From the UHGV virus genome UHGV-0058547: a stretch of 11,709 bases of DNA, one strand, 5' to 3'. Numbering within the stretch: the stretch's first letter is position 1; the number at the start of each line of letters is the position of its first letter. Below are positions 1,008-11,709 of this stretch, piece after piece. The DNA is from a virus. The notes under the pieces are model-generated. The model made no database searches. It saw only the letters and a list, made by a program, of their open reading frames with translations, and was not told the origin of the DNA. The position numbers and the translations under genes are program-made.

Positions 1008-1103
1008 TTACATTAATCGGTCAGAAAATGATTTAAATGAACCGACCGCATAGAAAAGGGCAAAACCAAAGGTATAAGCCCCGAAGAAATAAACGATATA
1101 CAT
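1008..1103 (-). CDS. gIX: Minor coat protein pIX-like (31 aa, hydrophobic)
   Basis: MYIVYFFGAYTFGFALFYAVGSFKSFSDRLM. The ATG overlaps the gVII stop (TAATG). Size, hydrophobicity and position match Ff gIX; no strong sequence identity is expected. Confidence 0.7.
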   Translation of the reverse strand: MYIVYFFGAYTFGFALFYAVGSFKSFSDRLM

Positions 1104-1189
1104 TAACGAAAGACCCCCGCAGTAATCGCGCCGAGGCCAAAAGAAATAACGATGCCAGACGCTATCAAAATTTGAATAACATCGTCCAT
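1103..1189 (-). CDS. gVII: Minor coat protein pVII-like (28 aa)
   Basis: MDDVIQILIASGIVISFGLGAITAGVFR, translated by hand from the minus strand. The C-terminal half resembles M13 pVII ...ISVVLCFALGIIAGGQR (recalled). Lies between the gV-position ORF and gIX. Confidence 0.7.
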   Translation of the reverse strand: MDDVIQILIASGIVISFGLGAITAGVFR

Positions 1190-2615: not shown

Positions 2616-2742
2616 ATGAGTTCAGTAGTTCATTAGTGTTTTAACATTACACCAGTGAGCTAGTGAGTTCAAGAGGATTGGATGATGTGAGTTCATGAGC
2701 ATGTATACTCACTTCAAATATTGCATTGAACGAGCGTAAAAA
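2616..2742. promoter_or_regulatory. Divergent control region between gII and the RHH gene, with three copies of GTGAGTTCA
   Basis: Copies at 2617-2624 (TGAGTTCA, overlapping the gII start), 2663-2671 and 2687-2695, plus partial GTGAGC at 2655-2660. A TATACT -10-like hexamer sits at 2704-2709 ahead of the RHH ATG at 2743. No -35 element identified. Confidence 0.45.
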
Positions 2743-2925
2743 ATGGCAAAGCGCACGACTTATAACGTGACGGAAGAAAGAAAAATGAAACTAGAACGAC
2801 TGGCTATAAATGCCAGTGTAAAACTAGGAAAAACAATTACATGGACAGAGATTTTAGGTTATCTGATTGATAACTACTCTAAAGATGCAGCAGAAGATCT
2901 CATGTCTGCCAAACAAAAGGATTAA
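2743..2925 (+). CDS. Small ribbon-helix-helix (CopG/Arc/MetJ-like) DNA-binding protein; candidate phage repressor/regulator
   Basis: 60 aa. Basic N-terminus plus alternating strand KRTTYNVT, then helix EERKMKLERLAINASVKLG, loop and second helix ILGYLIDNY: the classic RHH pattern. Transcribed divergently from gII, as rstR is from rstA in CTXphi. Confidence 0.6.
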   Translation: MAKRTTYNVTEERKMKLERLAINASVKLGKTITWTEILGYLIDNYSKDAAEDLMSAKQKD

Positions 2926-2943
2926 GTACCACGAATGGTACAA

Positions 2944-2970
2944 ACGTGCAGTATTACCTACACTGCACGT
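2944..2970 (+). other. Stem-loop (8-bp stem ACGTGCAG / CTGCACGT, 11-nt loop) followed by TCTTTATT; possible attenuator/terminator or protein binding site
   Basis: Direct reading: 2944-2951 is the reverse complement of 2963-2970. Lies between the RHH stop (2925) and the next ATG (3014). Confidence 0.3.
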
Positions 2971-3013
2971 TCTTTATTGTGCGGATTTTGAACAGCAACA
3001 AAGGATCAAAAGG

Positions 3014-3436
3014 ATGAGTAGAAATAACGAAACAAGCGGCGTTGAACTGGTTGTTGTAGGCGTATTTGCTTTCTGTCTGGCAGTTGTTGCCTGGCTAATG
3101 AAAACTTTCGATGTTGAATGGCAAACAGCACTGGAAACTGCGCCTGGCCTGATAGTCTGGCTGCTTGTTGTCGGTGCGGGGATCTTTTTCGGGATCAAAA
3201 TGGAAACTGGCCTTATTCGCTGGGGTGCTCCACTGGCGATCGCCCTTCTGATTCCGGTATTCAAGCCAATTCTTAAGGAAGCTGCCGGAGTTCGTGAAAC
3301 GGGTGGGCTGGTTTTCGATGATATGGTTTCGTGGTATGGAACTGGCTGGGGAATGTCTCTGATGTTCTTCGGGATTCTTATCGTCGGATACGGTCTGCTT
3401 TATTGGTGGCACAGAAGGAATTCATATTATTGGTGA
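3014..3436 (+). CDS. 140-aa integral membrane protein with four predicted TM helices; function unknown
   Basis: ATG at 3014 preceded by AAGGA. Hydrophobic stretches ELVVVGVFAFCLAVVAWLM, GLIVWLLVVGAGIFFGI, APLAIALLIPVF and MSLMFFGILIVGYGLLYWW. The longer track ORF from 2867 lacks an RBS, and its extension is unlikely. Confidence 0.6.
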   Translation: MSRNNETSGVELVVVGVFAFCLAVVAWLMKTFDVEWQTALETAPGLIVWLLVVGAGIFFGIKMETGLIRWGAPLAIALLIPVFKPILKEAAGVRETGGLVFDDMVSWYGTGWGMSLMFFGILIVGYGLLYWWHRRNSYYW

Positions 3437-3502
3437 ATGTCAATCACTTGAATTTACAGGTTTTTTATAATTTCAGCCCGCGCTAGTTTGATATTGTGAA
3501 AG

Positions 3503-4084
3503 GTGAAGATGAGTATGCAACCGAATGAAGAAATGGACCTCAGGAAATTTTACGCAGAGGGAACAGCTGACTACTTAAAAACTAAAATCAAAAAAAGCGA
3601 ACGACTTTTAAAAATAAACCAATATCTATCATTTGCCCTCCCTGTCCTAGTTGGAGGATACGCATCGGTTGATCACAGCTCCAAATATTTTGATTTTTTA
3701 GTTTGGGGCACAGGGATATTATCAGTGATAGTCTTGCTTTCTAATTTATACACACTGGTCATGAAGACTGATGAAAATTTATCTCGATATCTGGAATCAT
3801 ACTCTTTCAATAAACTCCTAACTGATTTGTATGGCGAACTGTCGAGCATGTTTAAATCAAAGACAGGCAACCAGCAACCCGCTAACCATTTGTTTTCAGT
3901 GATAAAATCAAAAGATGACTTCAATGCCAAGGAAGATGAAAAATATGTTAGCAATAATGATAAGAAACGGATTATGTTCGACATTCTGGTAAAGAAAAAT
4001 AAAGAATGCGTACGTTGCAATAAAATACCGACTAAATTTAACAAGCGGAAAGGTTGCACAAATTGTGGCAATCTCGTGAAATAA
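3503..4084 (+). CDS. 2-TM membrane protein with C-terminal CxxC-x12-CxxC zinc ribbon (SLATT-like topology); function unknown
   Basis: N-terminal helix, then TM hairpin YLSFALPVLVGGYASV / LVWGTGILSVIVLLSNLYTLV, a charged helical region, and C-terminal ECVRCNKIPTKFNKRKGCTNCGN. Start ambiguous between GTG 3503, ATG 3509 and ATG 3515; GAAAGG precedes. Confidence 0.6.
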   Translation: MKMSMQPNEEMDLRKFYAEGTADYLKTKIKKSERLLKINQYLSFALPVLVGGYASVDHSSKYFDFLVWGTGILSVIVLLSNLYTLVMKTDENLSRYLESYSFNKLLTDLYGELSSMFKSKTGNQQPANHLFSVIKSKDDFNAKEDEKYVSNNDKKRIMFDILVKKNKECVRCNKIPTKFNKRKGCTNCGNLVK

Positions 4085-4095
4085 AGGAGAAACAA

Positions 4096-4287
4096 ATGAG
4101 TTATAAAGTAGATCAAGTCAAAGCTCTCTGGCTTCAATTGACTGATGCGGAGAAAAAAGAATTTACAACATATCTTTTTAATGGTGAAAAAAAATCCTTA
4201 CGTGAAGGATTCGAAAGTTTTAGTGTGAATAAAAGCACTACAATGCAATTTGGTGATGCAAACGTCTGCCCTGCTTGCGGAAAATAA
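4096..4287 (+). CDS. 63-aa small protein ending in CPACGK; function unknown
   Basis: AAAGGAGA 5 nt upstream of the ATG at 4096; begins 12 nt after the preceding stop (operon-like); followed by a strong terminator. Confidence 0.5.
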   Translation: MSYKVDQVKALWLQLTDAEKKEFTTYLFNGEKKSLREGFESFSVNKSTTMQFGDANVCPACGK

Positions 4288-4329
4288 AATCTAAAAGATT
4301 TTGGTTCGCACAATGACGTTATGCTAAAG

Positions 4330-4366
4330 AGGCCGCTGCGGGATTCGATTTTCGCAGCGGCCTTTT
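4330..4366 (+). terminator. Rho-independent terminator ending the RHH/membrane-protein operon
   Basis: 11-bp GC-rich stem AGGCCGCTGCG (4330-4340) pairing with CGCAGCGGCCT (4353-4363), 12-nt loop, then TTTT. Confidence 0.75.
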
Positions 4367-4396
4367 CAACATAACGAGTCCTACATTATGCGCACC
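4364..4396 (-). other. dif-like XerC/XerD recombination site (site 2), long central region
   Basis: Minus strand reads GGTGCGCATAA-TGTAGGACTCG-TTATGTTGAAA. E. coli dif is GGTGCGCATAA-TGTATA-TTATGTTAAAT. XerC arm 11/11, XerD arm 9/11, central region 11 nt. Confidence 0.65.
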
Positions 4397-4555
4397 AACA
4401 TAAACCAAGGGAGAATCCAGTGATTTGTGGACATCCTTGTTCTCGCAGAATATGGATGTGCTGAGTCTGGTTGGTTCGCCTAACGGTTGAAATGTCTTGC
4501 GGCCTTCACTGGGCTTGTTGAGTGTTCTGAATGTTCGCTTCAGGAACTGATTCAA

Positions 4556-5647
4556 ATGAAACGATTAATACTTGCTGCGACTGTAATAAGTGCAAGCCTG
4601 CTGCCATTTACCTGTTCGGCAAATGCCGACTCACTGGGTATCAATAAAGACTGCGATAACCATCCTGTCAGCCAGTACGGCATGGACACCATTACCGCAT
4701 TCAGTCAGTACAAGACGGAATCGAAAAAATTTAAAGATGCACTGACTGCGTTCTGCAATAAAGGCAAAACCATGGGCGACATGGGATTTGAAGCTGCCAA
4801 TGCTCACTCTCTTGCTGAAGCAAGGAAATGGACTGACTCCAGTCTTCCGGGGGGAAATGAAGAGCAGAAAAAATTTTCAGCAGCCATGGGGAGCCTGCTT
4901 TACTATGCAATGCTGAATGGATTCTCTGGTTTTGACTATCCCAGGTCGCCCGAGCAAAAAGAAAAATCAGTAAGCACATTTAATCCAAATGAGATATGTG
5001 ATGACATATCATCTAAAGCAGCCAAATATTCAACCTCGAATCTCCCCCCTCAAGTACAGATTTCATTAGCTGAGTGGAATCAAATCAAAGGCGAGTTTCA
5101 GATGGTGTGTTTTGCGGGAGTTATGGCGGGTAACAATCGCCAGTCGGTTGACTCAAAAATATTGGCTGGAATGAATGATATAGGCCCAGAAGTGAATTTG
5201 AGTGCTTATCGTTCTGGTTCGGAATACCCAAAGCCTCGCAGCAAAAACAACACGGAAAAAATTGATGCTACAGCAAGGGAGAAAGCGGCTGCAAAGAAGA
5301 AAGCAGATGCAGCCAGAAAACAAAGTGCCACCAACAAAACAAAGCAGGCTGACGATTATAAATCCAGGAGTGTTCGCCTTGACTCCCCCGATTTTCAACG
5401 CTTTCAGTCTTCACTCAGAAATGAATTTATGCGGCGAATTGGTGATGCGAAGCGTTTTTCAGGAAAAGAATGTTCAATAAATGTCTGGATGTCACAGAAA
5501 GGTGAGGTTCTGTCAGCCAGGAAGGAATCCGGAGATGAAGAGCTTTGCTCTGTGGTATTGCAGGCATCGAAGGGAATGAGGCTTAGCCCTATGAGTAATG
5601 AAGTTTACGGAGTGTTCCGTAATCCATCCCTCAACTTTAAATTCTAG
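4556..5647 (+). CDS. Secreted (signal-peptide) protein with K/A-rich helical linker and C-terminal TolA domain III-like domain
   Basis: Likely start MKRLILAATVISASLLPFTCSANA (signal peptide) at 4556, AGGA 10 nt upstream. C-terminus GKECSINVWMSQKGEVLSARKESGDEELCSVVLQASKGMRLSPMSNEVYGVFRNPSLNFKF aligns with the E. coli TolA C-terminus GKTCTLRIKLAPDGMLLDIKPEGGDPALCQAALAAAKLAKIPKPPSQAVYEVFKNAPLDFKP (recalled). Preceded by a Lys/Ala-rich stretch like TolA domain II. No TM anchor. Confidence 0.7.
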   Translation: MKRLILAATVISASLLPFTCSANADSLGINKDCDNHPVSQYGMDTITAFSQYKTESKKFKDALTAFCNKGKTMGDMGFEAANAHSLAEARKWTDSSLPGGNEEQKKFSAAMGSLLYYAMLNGFSGFDYPRSPEQKEKSVSTFNPNEICDDISSKAAKYSTSNLPPQVQISLAEWNQIKGEFQMVCFAGVMAGNNRQSVDSKILAGMNDIGPEVNLSAYRSGSEYPKPRSKNNTEKIDATAREKAAAKKKADAARKQSATNKTKQADDYKSRSVRLDSPDFQRFQSSLRNEFMRRIGDAKRFSGKECSINVWMSQKGEVLSARKESGDEELCSVVLQASKGMRLSPMSNEVYGVFRNPSLNFKF

Positions 5648-6102
5648 TTCATGCCGGGTAAGAGTCTTCACTTTTGTGGGGATTCTTATTTTCTTTTTGT
5701 TGTTATTGTCAGCTCAAGCCGCATGGCTCTCCTGCGGAGGGCTTAATATTGGGATAATATTGAAACATCAAAGACAGATGCAGATAAGTACAGAAAACCG
5801 ATAATAACAATTAAACAGTAAGTCTGTATAAGAGAATAACAGAATATATAAAAGAATTAACCCCGGTTGGCGATTTGGCGATGGTAACACAGATATTTAA
5901 ATCTGTAAAATGGTTATATTTATTTTTTTATTTACCCACCCTATCGGGTGATTCCGGCGCAGTCCTGACCCTGAGTACGCTCCCTGTAATGCACCATGCG
6001 CAACGCCAGAGTCAGTGGCAATGCAAAGCCATGACTAAGGCCAAAATCACCCCAAAACCGCATACAGGCAGTCAGCGGTCACGATGTAAGCAAAATACGA
6101 GA

Positions 6103-6122
6103 TACTGTATAAATAAACAGCC
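6103..6122. promoter_or_regulatory. LexA (SOS) box-like palindrome TACTGTATAAATAAACAGCC
   Basis: CTGT-N8-ACAG with an AT-rich spacer; 16/20 matches to the E. coli consensus TACTGTATATATATACAGTA. Contains a TATAAA -10-like hexamer. Lies in an 0.8-kb noncoding stretch about 340 bp upstream of the HNH_3-like gene. Confidence 0.5.
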
Positions 6123-6460
6123 CTGCAATTGTCAGGCATATGCGCCCTCTCACACTGACACCCCCCCTGTTCCGCCCTGTTTATTGCATCTGTACAGCCA
6201 TCTGAGCGCATCCGGCTGCAACCTGACGCATTTGCATGTGCCGTATTAATGATGCCACACAGAGCGCCTGACGGTTTGTACCATCATCTGTCACAATTCA
6301 TTGTTTGAAAAATTTTACATTTTATTTTTTGAAGTGATTACATAAATATAATCCATCTCTCCGGCATGAGTGCCTGACTGAAGGTGAATCGAAAAAGAAG
6401 GACCCGCCCCGATTCTTTTTACTCCCTTCCCTTTCAGTTAAATCACGCAGGAGAAATATC

Positions 6461-7408
6461 ATGCCCCGCTACAAAAAAGGTATCCGTAATAATTGCTTTC
6501 ATCAAAATTATACTCATGACGTATTGTTCCCCGGCGCAACATTCAGAACCCGACATAATGGAGAATGCGCCATTCTTGGCCGCTCTGATGATAAATCAAG
6601 GCGAGGCTATTATGTCGTGGAATTCAAAGACAGTGGCATCATCAAGGAAGCCTATGGCTCGCATATTAAAACTGGTTCTGTATCAGACGAAGCTTTTCCA
6701 TCATCGGAGGAAGAACGACGAAAGTTACTGATGACACCAAAATATTACGGCGTCGGATATATTGGTAATGGATGTCATTCAACTATTGAAAACACCCGAA
6801 CACACCAAAGAACGAGAGCATTCATACTCTGGCATAACATGCTGGCAAGGTGCTACATGACAACCAAAGGGAAGCAGTATTTTAAAGGCTACAAAGGTGT
6901 CACTGTATGCGAGCGATGGCATAACTTTCAGAACTTCTGCAATGACCTTCCAAAATTGCATGGCTACAACAAATGGAAGGATAATCCGGGAGAGTATGAG
7001 CTCGATAAGGATTACTCACATCGCCGGATTTATTCTGCTGACACGGTGGCATTTATCAGCACAGAAGAAAATGCCAGGGAAGCTGGATTACGACGCGTTG
7101 CCATGAAGATTCCTTCCGGGCATTATCATGAAATAAATAAAATTCGAGATGAGATATTAATGGAGGCTGAAGATGAATTAAAAAACAATCAAATTCATTA
7201 TGAAGTTGTTCTTGACGGGAATATGAAAGTAATCCTGTGTGAAACTCCTTATGGCACAGTGTTGTTCTGGCCTCTCACAAAAAAGATTCAGCGTAATTGC
7301 TACATGATTGATGGTGATGTACAGGTTTATGTTTATTACCTGCGCTGGCTCATACTTCAGTGGGAAAACAGAAATCCCGACATAAACTGTGTTGCTACAA
7401 CCTGTTGA
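6461..7408 (+). CDS. 315-aa protein with central degenerate HNH_3-like module; putative DNA-binding protein or inactive homing-endonuclease relative
   Basis: AGGAG 7 nt upstream of the ATG. Central motif W-HNM-LARCY ... YFKGYKGVTVCERWHNFQNFCND ... YELDKDYSHRRIYSADTVAFISTEENAR matches the phage HNH_3-family pattern W..M..RC ... YGGRGI.VC..W..F..F ... IDRID.DGNY.P.NCRW.T..EQ..N (recalled), but the canonical catalytic residues are not evident. Confidence 0.6.
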   Translation: MPRYKKGIRNNCFHQNYTHDVLFPGATFRTRHNGECAILGRSDDKSRRGYYVVEFKDSGIIKEAYGSHIKTGSVSDEAFPSSEEERRKLLMTPKYYGVGYIGNGCHSTIENTRTHQRTRAFILWHNMLARCYMTTKGKQYFKGYKGVTVCERWHNFQNFCNDLPKLHGYNKWKDNPGEYELDKDYSHRRIYSADTVAFISTEENAREAGLRRVAMKIPSGHYHEINKIRDEILMEAEDELKNNQIHYEVVLDGNMKVILCETPYGTVLFWPLTKKIQRNCYMIDGDVQVYVYYLRWLILQWENRNPDINCVATTC

Positions 7409-7589
7409 TGATGCTATAAAATAGTCATAAAATAACCGGCATTTCACAATGCTATCTATTAATAAGAAGAAACGAACATTCAGGATGTATCTGTAATTCC
7501 GCTGTTGCAGTGATTTTCTGTGCCAGAAAACAAGTGACAACGTCTGGCAGCTCATTGCAGAAGGCTAAATGCCAGCACTTCGTGCAGTC

Positions 7590-7619
7590 ATTTAACATGT
7601 TCAACACATTATGCGCACC
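7590..7619 (-). other. dif-like XerC/XerD recombination site (site 1)
   Basis: Minus strand reads GGTGCGCATAA-TGTGTTGA-ACATGTTAAAT. XerC arm 11/11 to E. coli dif; XerD arm 9/11, with the last 9 nt ATGTTAAAT identical; 8-nt central region. Confidence 0.7.
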
Positions 7620-7657: not shown

Positions 7658-7891
7658 TCATTGGTCACAGACCGTAATCCACTGGCCCAGGACGTCTTTC
7701 AGGCAATGTTGGCATAAATCCAGTTTTAAGCGATTACTGTCACCAAAAATTGAACCGTATCCAGCTAAGTGATTAACAGACAGAAACTCATTGAACTCAA
7801 TGTCATCTACCACCGTCTTCGCATGGCGACCACAGCGATCGCAGGTCTTCGCACATAACATTACAGTATCGCTGGATGTGAAAAATTGCAT
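7658..7891 (-). CDS. 77-aa Cys-rich protein (CxxxCxxC ... CxxC); putative zinc-binding protein
   Basis: AGGAG 5 nt upstream of the ATG at 7891; six cysteines including C-x2-C pairs at residues 17/20 and 60/63. Same orientation as the phage core, downstream of gIV. Confidence 0.55.
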   Translation of the reverse strand: MQFFTSSDTVMLCAKTCDRCGRHAKTVVDDIEFNEFLSVNHLAGYGSIFGDSNRLKLDLCQHCLKDVLGQWITVCDQ

Positions 7892-8008
7892 TTTATCTCC
7901 TCGTAATGCTGCCGCGCCGAATCAGCAATAACGCTAAAAAAACAGAATTGTTCGGCTTGGCCAACCCCTGACACTAACAAAAGCAAGTTTTGTCATTGTC
8001 CGGGGTTA

Positions 8009-8317
8009 TCATATAAACCAATAGACCGTCCTTACGCCATTCTGGTTATCAATAACATAGCCGCATTGTTTCCTTAAAAATTCTTCTGCTAAATCAATGG
8101 CTTTTACAGAAATCTCATAAGAAGGAAGTAAAGTGTATCCTTTCCCTTCACTGGCAGCTGCTTTGATCGCATCCAGAGTATTATCAATCAGTAACAGAGC
8201 AAGTGATGCTTCATTTACCTGAGCCGAAGAACTTCTGGCTGCAAGTGTCATTGTTTTTGCTTCTTCCGCTGTAATCGTTCGTTCTGCCAGAGCAGATAAA
8301 ATCCCATAAGAATCCAT
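8009..8317 (-). CDS. 102-aa hypothetical protein
   Basis: ORF in phage orientation immediately downstream of the gIV-end hairpin; weak GGGG RBS; no recognisable motif. Confidence 0.4.
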   Translation of the reverse strand: MDSYGILSALAERTITAEEAKTMTLAARSSSAQVNEASLALLLIDNTLDAIKAAASEGKGYTLLPSYEISVKAIDLAEEFLRKQCGYVIDNQNGVRTVYWFI

Positions 8318-8342
8318 TAGTTACCCCAATCAATAATGTCCA

Positions 8343-8391
8343 TTTGATGGATAGCGAGCAGGGCTCACGCACCTACCCGCTATCCATCAAA
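8343..8391. repeat. Perfect 14-bp inverted repeat (TTTGATGGATAGCG ... CGCTATCCATCAAA) with 21-nt spacer, overlapping the gIV stop
   Basis: 8343-8356 is the exact reverse complement of 8378-8391. Position corresponds to the start of the Ff intergenic region (gIV terminator / packaging-signal hairpins). Confidence 0.6.
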
Positions 8392-9652
8392 GTGGACGAA
8401 TGATATGTGCTGTAAGCAAAATATACATAATACGCTGTTCATTGCTGTCTGCCTTGCTACTGAAAATCCAGCCTATAAGAGGAATTTTACTTATAACTGG
8501 AACTGAACGCTCGGCATTGCTGAACGATGAATCGATAAGCCCCCCCAATAACAACGTCTGACCATCCTTAATCTGGACTGTCGTCTGAATCTGGCGCTGA
8601 TTAGTAATAATATCGGATGCCTGATCATCATTGCTGATTGAATCAGCGCGAGTGTCGATAGTCAGAACTAGTTGCCCGTTACCCATGACAACAGGCGTTA
8701 CCTTGAGAGAAACGCCAACATCATGACGCTCGATAGTCTGAAACGGATTATTTACCCCGGCAGATTCGCCCGTTACCTTTCCGGTGATAAACGGCACATT
8801 CTTACCTACGGAAATGTAACCAGTCTGACCAGACTGAGTAAGAATACGCGGCGTTGAAATCACCTTAGAGCGTGAATTACTCTGGACAGCACGCAGAGAC
8901 AGCGCCAACACGTTACCATCAAAAATACCAAAAGAACCGCCCGCCGTAGAAAGAGCGCTACCCAGTGCAGAAGTATTAAAGCCCCCCGCAACCTTATGAC
9001 CGGATGCAGAACCTGCCGCAAACGATAAATCAACGCCATCAGACAAGCTGGTTTCAAACATCAGCGACTGAATGAGAACCTGATCGCGGGCAACATCCAC
9101 AGAATTGATAAAATCGGACAGAACCGGCAGCAGCTCGTCAGGCGCAGAAACAATCAGCGAGTTATTGCCTGGATAATCCACGACATTACCACCACCATTA
9201 GAATCAAGATAAATTTTAATCAGTTGCTGAACATCGGACGATCTAACTTTTGTCAGCTTAAAATTTCTGACCGTAAGCGCCACAGGTACTGGCTGGTAAG
9301 ATGGCTCAGAAGGAAAAGTATCATAAGACTGGTTATCAGAATCATCGGAATCCGAAACCATCTGTGAAGGTAATTTAGACGGCAAAGAGACTACCGCAGG
9401 ATTGCCAGAAAGCATGACAAAACCGTTAGCATTCAGAACAGACTTAAAGAAATCATCAATATTTGTTGGATTAACATCAGCATTAAATACGGTTACGTTT
9501 CCTTTAATATCAGGATTAACAATAACAGGCTTGCCAGTTTTTGAAGAATACCACTGAACAAATGAGCGAACAGATGAATTATTTAAATTAACAGTTTCAG
9601 CAGAAACGCAGAATGAACAGGCAAATAAAAAAGCAACAATAACAGAGCGCAT
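8387..9652 (-). CDS. gIV: Secretin pIV (phage export channel)
   Basis: 421 aa from ATG 9652 (AGGAG 8 nt upstream). N-terminus MRSVIVAFLFACSFCVSAETVNLNNSSVRSFVQWY parallels M13 pIV MKLLNVINFVFLMFVSSSSFAQVIEMNNSPLRDFVTWY; conserved secretin core GGSFGIFDGNVLALSLRAVQSNS..., VPFITGKVTGESAGVNNPFQTIERHDVGVSLKV, DGQTLLLGGL, IPLIGWIFSS (recalled). The track start at 9745 is a spurious upstream extension overlapping gI. Confidence 0.93.
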   Translation of the reverse strand: MRSVIVAFLFACSFCVSAETVNLNNSSVRSFVQWYSSKTGKPVIVNPDIKGNVTVFNADVNPTNIDDFFKSVLNANGFVMLSGNPAVVSLPSKLPSQMVSDSDDSDNQSYDTFPSEPSYQPVPVALTVRNFKLTKVRSSDVQQLIKIYLDSNGGGNVVDYPGNNSLIVSAPDELLPVLSDFINSVDVARDQVLIQSLMFETSLSDGVDLSFAAGSASGHKVAGGFNTSALGSALSTAGGSFGIFDGNVLALSLRAVQSNSRSKVISTPRILTQSGQTGYISVGKNVPFITGKVTGESAGVNNPFQTIERHDVGVSLKVTPVVMGNGQLVLTIDTRADSISNDDQASDIITNQRQIQTTVQIKDGQTLLLGGLIDSSFSNAERSVPVISKIPLIGWIFSSKADSNEQRIMYILLTAHIIRPL

Positions 9653-9659
9653 AATAATA

Positions 9660-10754
9660 TTACTCCTGACAGGTAACAGTCTGTAAATAACGGCCTTTTC
9701 TAATAACAACACGACAGGCATCTTTAATATCAACGGAATAACCATCTTTAATCAAATCAAAATACTGATATTTCATACCTTTTGCATCAACAAACGTAAC
9801 GGAAACGTCAAAGCCAAGTTGTGAAAAAGAATTAATAGAAAGTCGGGGTAAGTCACTGGACGAATCAGGCGTTACCGCCCTCGCCTGTTCAGCATAAGCA
9901 GATTTAATAGCTGAGATTTCATCAACATTCTTTCCAGACTGGAGCCAGAAACCAAACGCAAGCCCCAGCGCCAAAAAAGAAAGCATTAATATAAGACGGT
10001 TCGATTTGCGAAAATAAATTTTAGTGAGGCGCATATAATAATTAAATCCTCTGTGAACAGAAAATTGACCGTGCGTGATAAATGGTGGCAAAAGCGAAAA
10101 TGCGCCATGAGGATAATTATCTGTGAACGCTTGTTTGGTATTGTAAGCAGAATAAAGAGATTTTCCTGTATATATCCATTTATCAACAGTGATTGAATTA
10201 ACATTATCACCATATTTGACAATGCCAAAGTGTACCTTTGGTAAAGAAAATCTCGCCCCTGAAACCAAATTCATAATGGAGCCAACAAAAGGAATGTTTA
10301 ATTTATCTGAACGGCGACAATAAACAACATGCTCAGCAAGCGCCAGACGAGCTTGCTTATCCATTATCGAAATATCCTGAATCAAAAATATAATATCCCA
10401 GCCTAATTTTCTGGCATGTAAAAACCAGTCAATAACAGGTTGTCTGTCTTTATCACCCCATGAGCGGGAATTAAACCAAGTACCACATTCATCAAGTACA
10501 AGGAGGCCATTACGGGATTCATCGTAAGATGTATTCCCAATACCAATAGCAAGTAAATCATTTAATGAAGGCTTGTCAGGAATGCGAATAACGCGCGTTT
10601 TTTTCGCATAACGCCCAACCATAGGCATATTATGCAATTTAAGATCAAGATTAGTGGCAACAGGACAACCCTTAGCAAGTCTTTCCTGTATTCTGGAAAC
10701 ACTAACAAGTGTCTTGCCTGAGCCTAATTTGCCTGTTACTACATAAACCGCCAT
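9660..10754 (-). CDS. gI: Assembly ATPase pI (Zot-like)
   Basis: MAVYVVTGKLGSGKTLVS... with Walker A; long colinear similarity to M13 pI MAVYFVTGKLGSGKTLVSVGKIQDKI...LLVLDECGTWFNTRSW...DWFLHARKLGWDIIFLVQD...AEHVVYCRR (recalled). ATG immediately follows the gVI stop (TAAATG). Confidence 0.93.
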   Translation of the reverse strand: MAVYVVTGKLGSGKTLVSVSRIQERLAKGCPVATNLDLKLHNMPMVGRYAKKTRVIRIPDKPSLNDLLAIGIGNTSYDESRNGLLVLDECGTWFNSRSWGDKDRQPVIDWFLHARKLGWDIIFLIQDISIMDKQARLALAEHVVYCRRSDKLNIPFVGSIMNLVSGARFSLPKVHFGIVKYGDNVNSITVDKWIYTGKSLYSAYNTKQAFTDNYPHGAFSLLPPFITHGQFSVHRGFNYYMRLTKIYFRKSNRLILMLSFLALGLAFGFWLQSGKNVDEISAIKSAYAEQARAVTPDSSSDLPRLSINSFSQLGFDVSVTFVDAKGMKYQYFDLIKDGYSVDIKDACRVVIRKGRYLQTVTCQE

Positions 10755-11096: not shown

Positions 11097-11709
11097 CACT
11101 CACCCCCTTTGCGAAGCAATGAAGTTAAAGAAGTAAAGACATACCAGAACGTAAGGCAATAAAAAACCCATGAAAGAACATCTTTAATAGTCAGTAATTT
11201 ATCGCAACCAATATCAATCTGATAAACCTCTCCGGGAAAAATAATAAAATCAGAGCAGCCGTTACCATTGGGTAAATTAGGCAGCATAGCACCTTTATTT
11301 AAAAATGCTTCCCATAAAGCACCGTGAGAATCCTTTTCAATTCCCAATTCAGAATCAGCTAAAGTAGAAGCGCCATCTAATTCAGAGTCGCCCTTTCCAT
11401 AACGAGAATCACCACCTGAAGGGTCAGCAAAACGGCCAGCCCCCCGCGTAAGATTGTTAATGGAATCGTCAAGACGATTTATATTATTCCTGGTTTGTTC
11501 ATCGGCATTTTTTTTATCATCTGATGAAGTGTCTTTCTCCGTTAATTTATCATGAATATCGCTGGCTATTTTGGGTGAAGCACCTTCGATCGCAGACTGA
11601 ATATCACCTTTAGAAAGACTGGAACCACTAGAGCCACCGCCAGAACTACCGCCAGAACTACCGCCAGAACTACCGCCAGAACTACCGCCACCGGACTCAC
11701 CACCGGACT
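11096..11709 (-). CDS. gIII: Adsorption/minor coat protein pIII, C-terminal portion (partial; ORF enters from the right edge)
   Basis: Frame is open from the window edge to the TGA at 11096-11098 (translated by hand). C-terminus ...NLPNGNGCSDFIIFPGEVYQIDIGCDKLLTIKDVLSWVFYCLTFWYVFTSLTSLLRKGGE parallels M13 g3p ...ECRPFVFGAGKPYEFSIDCDKINLFRGVFAFLLYVATFMYVFSTFANILRNKES (recalled). Preceded by (GGSS)n and GGES linker repeats. Confidence 0.88.
   Translation of the reverse strand, partial: SGGESGGGSSGGSSGGSSGGSSGGGSSGSSLSKGDIQSAIEGASPKIASDIHDKLTEKDTSSDDKKNADEQTRNNINRLDDSINNLTRGAGRFADPSGGDSRYGKGDSELDGASTLADSELGIEKDSHGALWEAFLNKGAMLPNLPNGNGCSDFIIFPGEVYQIDIGCDKLLTIKDVLSWVFYCLTFWYVFTSLTSLLRKGGE
11641..11688 (-). 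repeat. Four tandem 12-nt repeats (cagaactaccgc) encoding the (GGSS)n linker of pIII
   Basis: Direct reading of 11641-11688; minus-strand translation gives alternating GG/SS. Confidence 0.9.

Follow-up and report, generated by a model that had tools for sequence, protein, structure and literature searches.

What purpose is served by a long, perfect inverted repeat that straddles the end of the secretin gene in a filamentous phage? The question arises at positions 8,343 to 8,391 of virus genome UHGV-0058547. The initial annotation of this 11,709-nt stretch of DNA (hereafter the window) recorded a perfect 14-bp inverted repeat overlapping the gIV stop codon, and suggested that it might be the packaging signal, or a terminator, of a rearranged genome.

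The window represents an IKe-like inovirus of E. coli that integrates at dif and is of the UPphi type. Its core phage genes are all on the window minus strand, where gII, gV, gVII, gIX, gVIII, gIII, gVI, gI and gIV follow one another in canonical order. In filamentous phages, transcription of every gene has the sense of the viral strand; given the location of the core genes, the packaged strand is therefore the window minus strand. The description of the genome as rearranged does not hold: the core order is canonical, the window as given is complementary to the viral strand, and the intergenic region has been expanded. In the expansion, 3′ of gIV, are two small genes (102 and 77 aa), a dif-like site that we read as attP, and ~5 kb of cargo in the opposite orientation, a layout already described for UPphi phages (PMC7307601). 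The genes on which the argument depends are the following.

8387..9652 (longest ORF to 9745), minus strand: gIV, secretin; the 421-aa form is the RefSeq annotation in identical prophages
9660..10754, minus strand: gI, assembly ATPase of the Zot type (66% identity to IKe pI); putative partner of the hairpin at the assembly site
1103..1189, minus strand: gVII, 28 aa, ending ...AGVFR; putative trans-acting partner of the hairpin
1008..1103, minus strand: gIX, 31 aa; putative trans-acting partner of the hairpin
8009..8317, minus strand: accessory gene of the h1 type (phrog_4115; 102 aa, uncharacterised), beginning 69 nt past the gIV stop

The ORF at 8387..9745 matches Pfam Secretin (6.6e-43) together with the N0 and Secretin_N domains, and the gIV product is 67–72% identical to IKe pIV. 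UPphi phages have been described as Lineavirus-like elements integrated at dif as tandem repeats, with Ypfphi-like gII and gV, two genes of unknown function (h1 and h2) where IKe, I2-2 and M13 are intergenic, and additional reverse-oriented ORFs (Shapiro & Putonti, PMC7307601). In agreement, UPphi-type copies often form tandem arrays beside hipBA and a fim-like cluster, that is, at dif; the gIV–hairpin–h1 segment (8200-8560) has near-identical copies in 49 of 5,426 complete E. coli genomes. One chromosome, that of E. coli EC5502 (NZ_CP092647.1), contains 16 separate matching places, which suggests a very long tandem prophage array at dif.

Two further observations concern the records themselves. 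At both ends (1-40 and 11670-11709) the window runs into the (GGGES)n repeats of the glycine-rich linker of gIII, and gIII is frameshifted when the two ends are joined; the record probably represents a circular or tandem assembly that broke or collapsed within the linker repeat. Among the pIV matches, two come from contigs with unexpected labels, one from a 'Candidatus Nanosynbacter' MAG (JARKOR010000214.1, 100% amino-acid identity) and one from 'Paenibacillus tengchongensis' (NZ_WACP01000037.1, 97% identity, coverage 0.57). Both contigs were most likely mis-binned or are contaminants, and their labels would not name true hosts.

The inverted repeat itself was found exactly as recorded. Its arms are separated by a 21-nt spacer, and the gIV stop codon (TGA, 8389-8387 on the minus strand) lies inside the arm at 8378-8391. 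Read along the minus strand from 8397 to 8338, the repeat extends into a hairpin of ~27 bp, whose parts are listed here.

8338..8397, minus (viral/sense) strand: full hairpin, from the minimum-free-energy folds as DNA and as RNA
8378..8391, minus strand: 5′ (ascending) arm of the 14-bp stem, TTTGATGGATAGCG, holding the gIV stop TGA
8343..8356, minus strand: 3′ (descending) arm of the 14-bp stem, CGCTATCCATCAAA, which covaries with the 5′ arm in relatives
8357..8379, minus strand: conserved apical module CGGGTAGG-T-GC-GTGA-GC-CCTGCT, recognised by comparison with relatives

The ascending side consists of the foot GTCCA, a bulged C, the 5′ arm, GGTAGG, a bulged T and GC; across a 4-nt loop (GTGA) the descending side continues with GC, CCTGCT, the 3′ arm and the foot TGGAC. 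The upper stem thus comprises 6 bp with two G.T wobbles, topped above the bulged T by a GC/GC cap. Part of the ascending limb (8379-8370) reads CGGGTAGGTG and carries the motif CGGGT...GGTG.

The 14-bp repeat is the longest perfect inverted repeat of the whole window, and none of 100 dinucleotide shuffles of the window contained one of this length (maximum 13 bp); allowing for imperfections, the repeat widens to 20-nt arms with 90% complementarity and a 9-nt gap. As the initial annotation noted, the hairpin can form in the ssDNA genome or in mRNA; in the predicted folds, as DNA it has a free energy of −24.5 kcal/mol (z = −9.2), as RNA −46.4 kcal/mol (z = −10.8), and in neither case was any of 200 shuffled sequences as stable. 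A scan of both strands showed it to be the most stable 70-nt fold of the window. The hairpin is real, it is under strong selection, and it is not a product of chance.

A counterpart is found in IKe. The IKe record (NC_002014) annotates positions 6141-6196 as 'stem loop structure pot. transcription termination, morphogenetic signal', and elsewhere the IKe packaging signal is placed at 6141-6197 (bioRxiv 10.1101/2023.12.30.573655); it is from this GenBank annotation and secondary citations that the packaging role of the IKe element is known here. Since IKe gIV ends at 6151, the annotated stem-loop overlaps the gIV stop just as the window hairpin does. The IKe sequence GCCGGGTAGGTGCGCTAGCCCTGCCCG matches GCGGGTAGGTGCGTGAGCCCTGCTCGC in the window at an equal distance from the gIV stop, and the two phages have in common an almost invariant apical module, CGGGTAGGTGCG-NN-AGCCCTGCC. 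In every relative the shared apex (CGGGTAGGTGCG-NN-AGCCCTGC) stands 12-14 nt from the gIV stop. The correspondence around the stop codon can be seen by setting the IKe strand, ...GCGC TTTGA GGCTGCCGGGTAGGTGCGCTAGCCCTGCCCGTAGACTCTT GCGCC..., beside the window minus strand, ...CCAC TTTGA TGGATAGCGGGTAGGTGCGTGAGCCCTGCTCGCTATCCATCAAA TGGAC.... A covariance model (R1) built without IKe gave 69.3 bits for the window and 47.5 bits (E = 5e-10) for IKe. As judged by these comparisons, the hairpin is homologous to the IKe morphogenetic signal.

The resemblance to the IKe or Lineavirus type of signal (I2-2 and the Erwinia PEar phages included) extends to the overlap with the gIV stop, the location on the viral/sense strand, the length of the hairpin, the apical module and the presence alongside of homologous gVII, gIX, gI and gIV. 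There are also differences. The lower stem of the window hairpin is perfect over 14 bp, whereas that of IKe has internal loops; its sequence is wholly different, by way of compensatory change; and the distance between stop codon and apex differs by 1 nt. Accessory genes, the dif-like attP and cargo come next after the window hairpin, rather than the origins directly, and the replication module (gII/gV) is not IKe-like. Unlike the situation in both IKe and Ff, h1 begins 69 nt downstream of the gIV stop, which places the hairpin within a possible gIV–h1 transcript.

To define the range over which the hairpin is conserved, relatives were gathered through pIV, that is, independently of the hairpin itself. 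This gave 4 GTDB loci and 26 IMG/VR loci, to which IKe, PEar1, E. coli A20 and VL46 were added. A hairpin forms at the gIV stop in each of the 17 distinct post-gIV sequences, and in every case the fold of the sense strand is the more stable, by 3-10 kcal/mol relative to its complement. The placing of the repeat at the start of an Ff-type intergenic region, made originally from the window alone, thus extends to every relative, with the hairpin at the gIV stop as in IKe.

Plain MAFFT alignment of 76-nt segments followed by RNAalifold misaligned the A20-type sequences and returned only 11 pairs, and was replaced by a trimmed, gap-free alignment and a covariance model. In the gap-free alignment of nine sequences (A3, made with MAFFT only), both partners have changed in 10 of 22 pairs, and 93.8% of cells hold a pair, a share that falls to 34-46% if the partners are displaced by 1-3 columns; the observed pairing, compensatory-pair count and covariation score were each matched by none of 500 shuffles. 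With 12 distinct sequences in a model-based alignment, compensatory change is evident at 12 of 21 pairs, and 92% of cells are paired (32-47% for slid partners); this second alignment was fitted to the structure and so favours pairing, although the MAFFT-only alignment agrees with it. A typical case is ATAGCG/CGCTAT in the window, which is replaced by CTGGCG/CGCCAG in the relative L017. The covariation shows selection for pairing in the single-stranded sense strand, be it viral ssDNA or mRNA, both of which have the same sense.

Change is unevenly spread along the stem. Pairs 16-32 (T.G), 18-30, 19-29, 21-28 and 22-27, along with the bulged T, are invariant among the 12 sequences, and pairs 15-33 and 17-31 have changed on both sides in just one sequence each. 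Within the apical module, only the two middle loop bases vary freely, as seen among IKe and the I2-2-size, PEar and UPphi relatives.

The covariance model, built from the nine-sequence alignment, has a single match in each phage unit, and every time the match is at the gIV stop. Outside its seed it recovers IKe (47.5 bits) and the loci L027 (49.5 bits) and L006 (45.1 bits), and it prefers the sense strand (69 bits) over the antisense strand (33 bits). With filters off, no second site was found in the window (next best 12 bits, E = 0.15). The 18-base apical motif, searched for in 2.9 million IMG/VR contigs, occurs 16 times. Fifteen of these contigs, with one match each, had already been recovered through pIV; the sixteenth (L051) was rejected as a chance match in GC-rich DNA without a hairpin. 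In IMG/VR the exact apical motif is essentially confined to the post-gIV sites of this clade. Rfam has no family at the hairpin, its sole match in the window being a sub-threshold sRNA at 4313-4364.

Identity between the window and IKe is 63% for gVII, 57% for gIX, 60% for gVIII, 53% for gIII, 52% for gVI, 66% for gI and 67% for gIV; for gII there are partial matches only, at 24-28% identity, and for gV no significant match to IKe was found. Throughout the clade, pVII (SFGLGAITAGV-x-R) and pIX are conserved in their C-terminal halves; in Ff it is the C-terminal tails of these proteins that face the DNA hairpin (PMC10175506).

A natural exchange of modules is provided by the CUS/Ypf-type prophage at dif in E. 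coli NC101. Its gII and gV are equal in length to those of the window and have neighbouring RefSeq accessions, and it shares with the window the phage side of dif as well as a noncoding block (7892-8008, 85.6% identity). The secretin, Zot and coat genes of this prophage, compared by annotation, differ from those of the window in annotation and length. No hairpin follows the secretin gene in this prophage, and the covariance model has no match there, the best score (13 bits) falling outside the prophage. In A20-type UPphi, similarity to the NC101-type prophage begins ~40 nt past the hairpin, and between the window and L017 similarity stops at the TGGAC foot. Because similarity breaks just 3′ of the hairpin in both cases, the hairpin can be regarded as the last element of the IKe-like assembly module. 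On this comparative evidence, the hairpin is carried along with the IKe-like assembly genes (gVII, gIX, gI and gIV), and not with the replication or dif-integration modules.

The gene that follows the hairpin is replaceable. In the window it is the 102-aa h1; in A20, and at 8606-8854 of L002, it is an 82-aa basic protein, which A20 has in common with the NC101-type prophage; and in L017 it is another ORF. Since the neighbouring gene varies among relatives, the slot just 3′ of the hairpin is a hot spot of gene exchange. The second small gene, h2 (7658-7891, minus strand; 77 aa, phrog_5435), encodes two CxxC pairs and has the look of a zinc ribbon.

Between h1 and h2 lies the noncoding block at 7892-8008. 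It contains two hairpins, one of which (7963-8007; DNA fold z = −3.95) is followed by a T7 run. A20 has the block at 82% identity although other genes flank it there, and CUS/Ypf-type prophages, with only gII/gV otherwise in common, have it at ~85% identity; altogether it occurs in 166 E. coli genomes. The block is a likely replication origin (minus and/or plus strand), moving with the replication module. The plus-strand nick-site motif of Ff and IKe, TTTAATAGTGGACTCTTGTT, was not found with up to 3 mismatches, which fits a gII that is not IKe-like.

Comparison with the packaging signal of Ff gave a different outcome from the comparison with IKe. Where IKe shares the apex and is detected at 47.5 bits, alignable homology to Ff was not evident: the covariance model gave no match at E ≤ 1 in the M13 intergenic region. 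What the hairpin has in common with hairpin A of Ff (f1/M13/fd) is its place as the first element after gIV, a long imperfect viral-strand structure, and a short motif. According to Russel & Model (1989), as cited in bioRxiv 10.1101/2023.12.30.573655, the ascending limb of the Ff signal has CGGGT followed closely by GGTG; the same succession is present in the window (CGGGTAGGTG) and in M13 (CGGGTGTGGTGG). The presumed partners are also the same, namely pVII, pIX and pI (PMC10175506). The f1 signal (nt 5511-5564) starts ~10 nt past the gIV stop, without the overlap seen in the window, and Ff reportedly tolerates changes in the loop (bioRxiv 10.1101/2023.12.30.573655), whereas the apex of the window type is almost invariant. 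The relation to the Ff signal is thus one of position, architecture and short motif only.

The packaging hairpin of integrative inoviruses of Xanthomonas likewise has conserved stem and loop nucleotides. It differs from the window hairpin, a ~27 bp stem at the gIV stop, in being 20-26 nt long with a 7-8 bp stem, in its usual location inside gII, and in its consensus (bioRxiv 10.1101/2023.12.30.573655). Moreover, the Xanthomonas signal reportedly works in either orientation (bioRxiv 10.1101/2023.12.30.573655), whereas the window hairpin is strongly strand-biased.

Taken with the homology to IKe, the covariation of the stem, the bias toward the sense strand and the co-inheritance with IKe-like assembly genes make it highly probable that in this filamentous phage, IKe-like and integrating at dif, the hairpin serves as the packaging (morphogenetic) signal. 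A working packaging signal must exist somewhere in these genomes, because UPphi901 DNA in culture filtrates survived DNase treatment, as detected by PCR (PMC7307601). The same description of UPphi mentions neither a packaging signal nor a hairpin; the hairpin is a known kind of element, and this instance of it appears not to have been annotated before for this phage group.

Of the two functions offered for the repeat by the initial annotation, it is packaging that draws support from each of these lines, and termination that loses ground. A stem-loop containing GC pairs at the 3′ end of a gene is a feature shared with Rho-independent terminators. However, the window hairpin lacks a U/T tract, its stem is far longer than is typical of such terminators, and its apex is conserved across genera. 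No T-run was found 3′ of the stem, where the next bases are TGGACATTATTGATTGGGG (TGGACATTATTG), T-rich tails are not conserved among relatives, and a scan for the terminator consensus called none at the hairpin. We therefore rejected an intrinsic (Rho-independent) terminator as the main function. Termination after gIV in f1 is Rho-dependent. Only 69 nt beyond the gIV stop, h1 begins with its own Shine-Dalgarno sequence (GGGGTAAC), and the short distance means that transcripts either read through the hairpin or start anew.

A broader role confined to mRNA, whether as terminator or attenuator between gIV and h1 or as a 3′ stem guarding gIV mRNA from exonucleases, would accord with the stability of the RNA fold (−46.4 kcal/mol, z = −10.8), with covariation that fits RNA as well as ssDNA, with the separate gene that follows, and with the words 'pot. 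transcription termination' that the IKe record attaches to the same end of gIV. We nonetheless consider it improbable, since mere stability needs no invariant upper stem, fixed wobble, fixed bulge or CGGGT..GGTG motif, and since the element tracks the assembly genes across module swaps; the negative terminator scan, the missing T-run and the unconserved T-richness downstream weigh against it as well. A secondary role at the RNA level beside packaging, such as pausing, mRNA stabilisation or attenuation of h1/h2, is a possibility that we entertain only tentatively.

Three other functions would place the hairpin in the replication, regulation or integration of the phage, and against these the homology to IKe, the linkage to the assembly module and the natural module swap in NC101 favour packaging. 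It is very unlikely that the hairpin is a single-strand initiation signal, part of a minus-strand origin read by host RNA polymerase or primase. A stable viral-strand hairpin within an expanded intergenic region would suit such a role, and minus-strand origins of the Ff type are hairpins beside the packaging signal, as in the IKe annotation; yet in IKe they are annotated (6333-6385, 6410-6438) separately from the homologous hairpin, the window hairpin does not move with gII/gV, NC101 has the same replication module without it, and the block at 7892-8008, with its two hairpins, moves with the replication module and is the better candidate. Less likely again is a palindromic operator, bound as duplex by a phage regulator, for instance of h1/h2 or of the cargo. 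Perfect 14-bp arms are typical of some operators, and genes of unknown function are at hand, among them a small candidate regulator at 2743-2925. The freely compensating lower stem, the conserved G.T wobbles and bulges and the two-fold strand bias point instead to a folded single strand, and the element is kept in IKe and PEar1, where the annotation has no genes after gIV, and in a 6,744-nt contig of I2-2 size. That the hairpin is a folded single-stranded attP for XerCD, as in CTXphi, is barely credible, even though the phage integrates at dif, often in tandem (PMC7307601), and the XerC arm of dif starts with six bases, GGTGCG, that are also present in the loop region. At a distance of 750 nt there is a complete dif-like site (7590-7619), where the host–phage junctions of A20 and NC101 are found; beyond that 6-mer the XerC and XerD arms are absent from the hairpin; and the hairpin is conserved in IKe, which does not integrate (PMC7307601), and in PEar1.

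The dif-like site merits a brief description. A search of the window for E. coli dif, allowing up to 3 mismatches, gave no match; by eye, the minus strand at 7590-7619 reads GGTGCGCATAA-TGTGTTGA-ACATGTTAAAT, with a perfect XerC arm, a centre of 8 nt rather than 6, and 2 mismatches in the XerD arm. Matches of the window to E. coli chromosomes start at 7585-7606, and a perfect dif adjoins the phage flank CCTTACCATT in both A20 and NC101. From the form of the site and these flanks, it follows that the window carries attP or an inter-copy junction, not a host junction.

Beyond this site, the window has more cargo (~5 kb, 2616-7590) than VL46/UPphi901-type copies, which carry three reverse ORFs (unit 8,454 bp). 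One gene (4487-5647, plus strand) encodes a 386-aa protein with a hydrophobic, signal-peptide-like N-terminus and a C-terminal TolA domain III (Pfam TolA_C 6.3e-11; phrog_5772). TolA domain III is the co-receptor of Ff pIII, and by analogy a phage-encoded periplasmic TolA_C protein could be a decoy against superinfection or colicin uptake. Another ORF (6461-7408, plus strand; 315 aa) matches HNH-endonuclease PHROGs (phrog_2081, 2e-35) and has no Pfam match; it is unusual cargo for an inovirus. PADLOC gave no match for any accessory or cargo gene. A perfect 11-bp inverted repeat (AGGCCGCTGCG/CGCAGCGGCCT) with a 12-nt loop, the second most stable fold of the window (−21.5 kcal/mol), is located at 4330-4363, flanked by two plus-strand cargo ORFs. 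It has a sub-threshold Rfam match to Ms_IGR-8 (22 bits, E = 0.37), and a homologous-looking hairpin at 17927-17969 of L052 scores 12.2 bits with the covariance model, equal to the 4330-4363 repeat itself. This repeat is probably a terminator.

How might the hairpin at the gIV stop act as a packaging signal? The mechanism that we propose is carried over from the biology of Ff and IKe (PMC10175506 and general knowledge), so that the packaging activity and the protein contacts are predicted ones. Rolling-circle replication would release the viral strand (the window minus strand), which pV would coat except at the self-paired hairpin, leaving this exposed at one end of the pV–DNA rod. At the inner-membrane assembly site (pI/pXI with the channel formed by pIV), pVII and pIX would engage the hairpin through their basic C-termini, an interaction modelled on Ff genetics as cited in PMC10175506. 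Engagement would start extrusion and set the polarity of the DNA in the virion.

Such a mechanism would place different demands on the two halves of the stem. The lower stem would only need to pair; its 5′ arm would be bound in addition by the last gIV codons and the stop, and the 3′ arm would follow the 5′ arm through compensatory change. The almost invariant upper stem, with its fixed T.G wobble, bulged T and G-N-N-A loop, is likely the recognition surface. These ideas can be joined in a single proposal, in which the apex is a sequence-specific recognition module of the Lineavirus-type assembly machinery, while the hairpin as a whole is a recombination joint with the accessory, replication and dif modules and an RNA-level gate on h1/h2. 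The notion of a joint is prompted by UPphi variants whose similarity ends at the 3′ foot of the hairpin, and that of apex recognition contrasts with Ff, where changes to the loop are reportedly tolerated (bioRxiv 10.1101/2023.12.30.573655). We regard the joint proposal as speculative and, taken as a whole, rather doubtful.

The known picture of filamentous phage assembly is unchanged by these findings. What they supply is a precise candidate packaging signal for the UPphi group, whose members are prophages in uropathogenic and other E. coli. The difference between a freely covarying lower stem and a near-invariant apex tells which bases should be mutated if recognition by pVII, pIX or pI is to be mapped. 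Finally, the assignment of the hairpin to the assembly module, and of the second noncoding block to the replication module, should aid the annotation of mosaic inoviruses and the design of phagemids and helpers.
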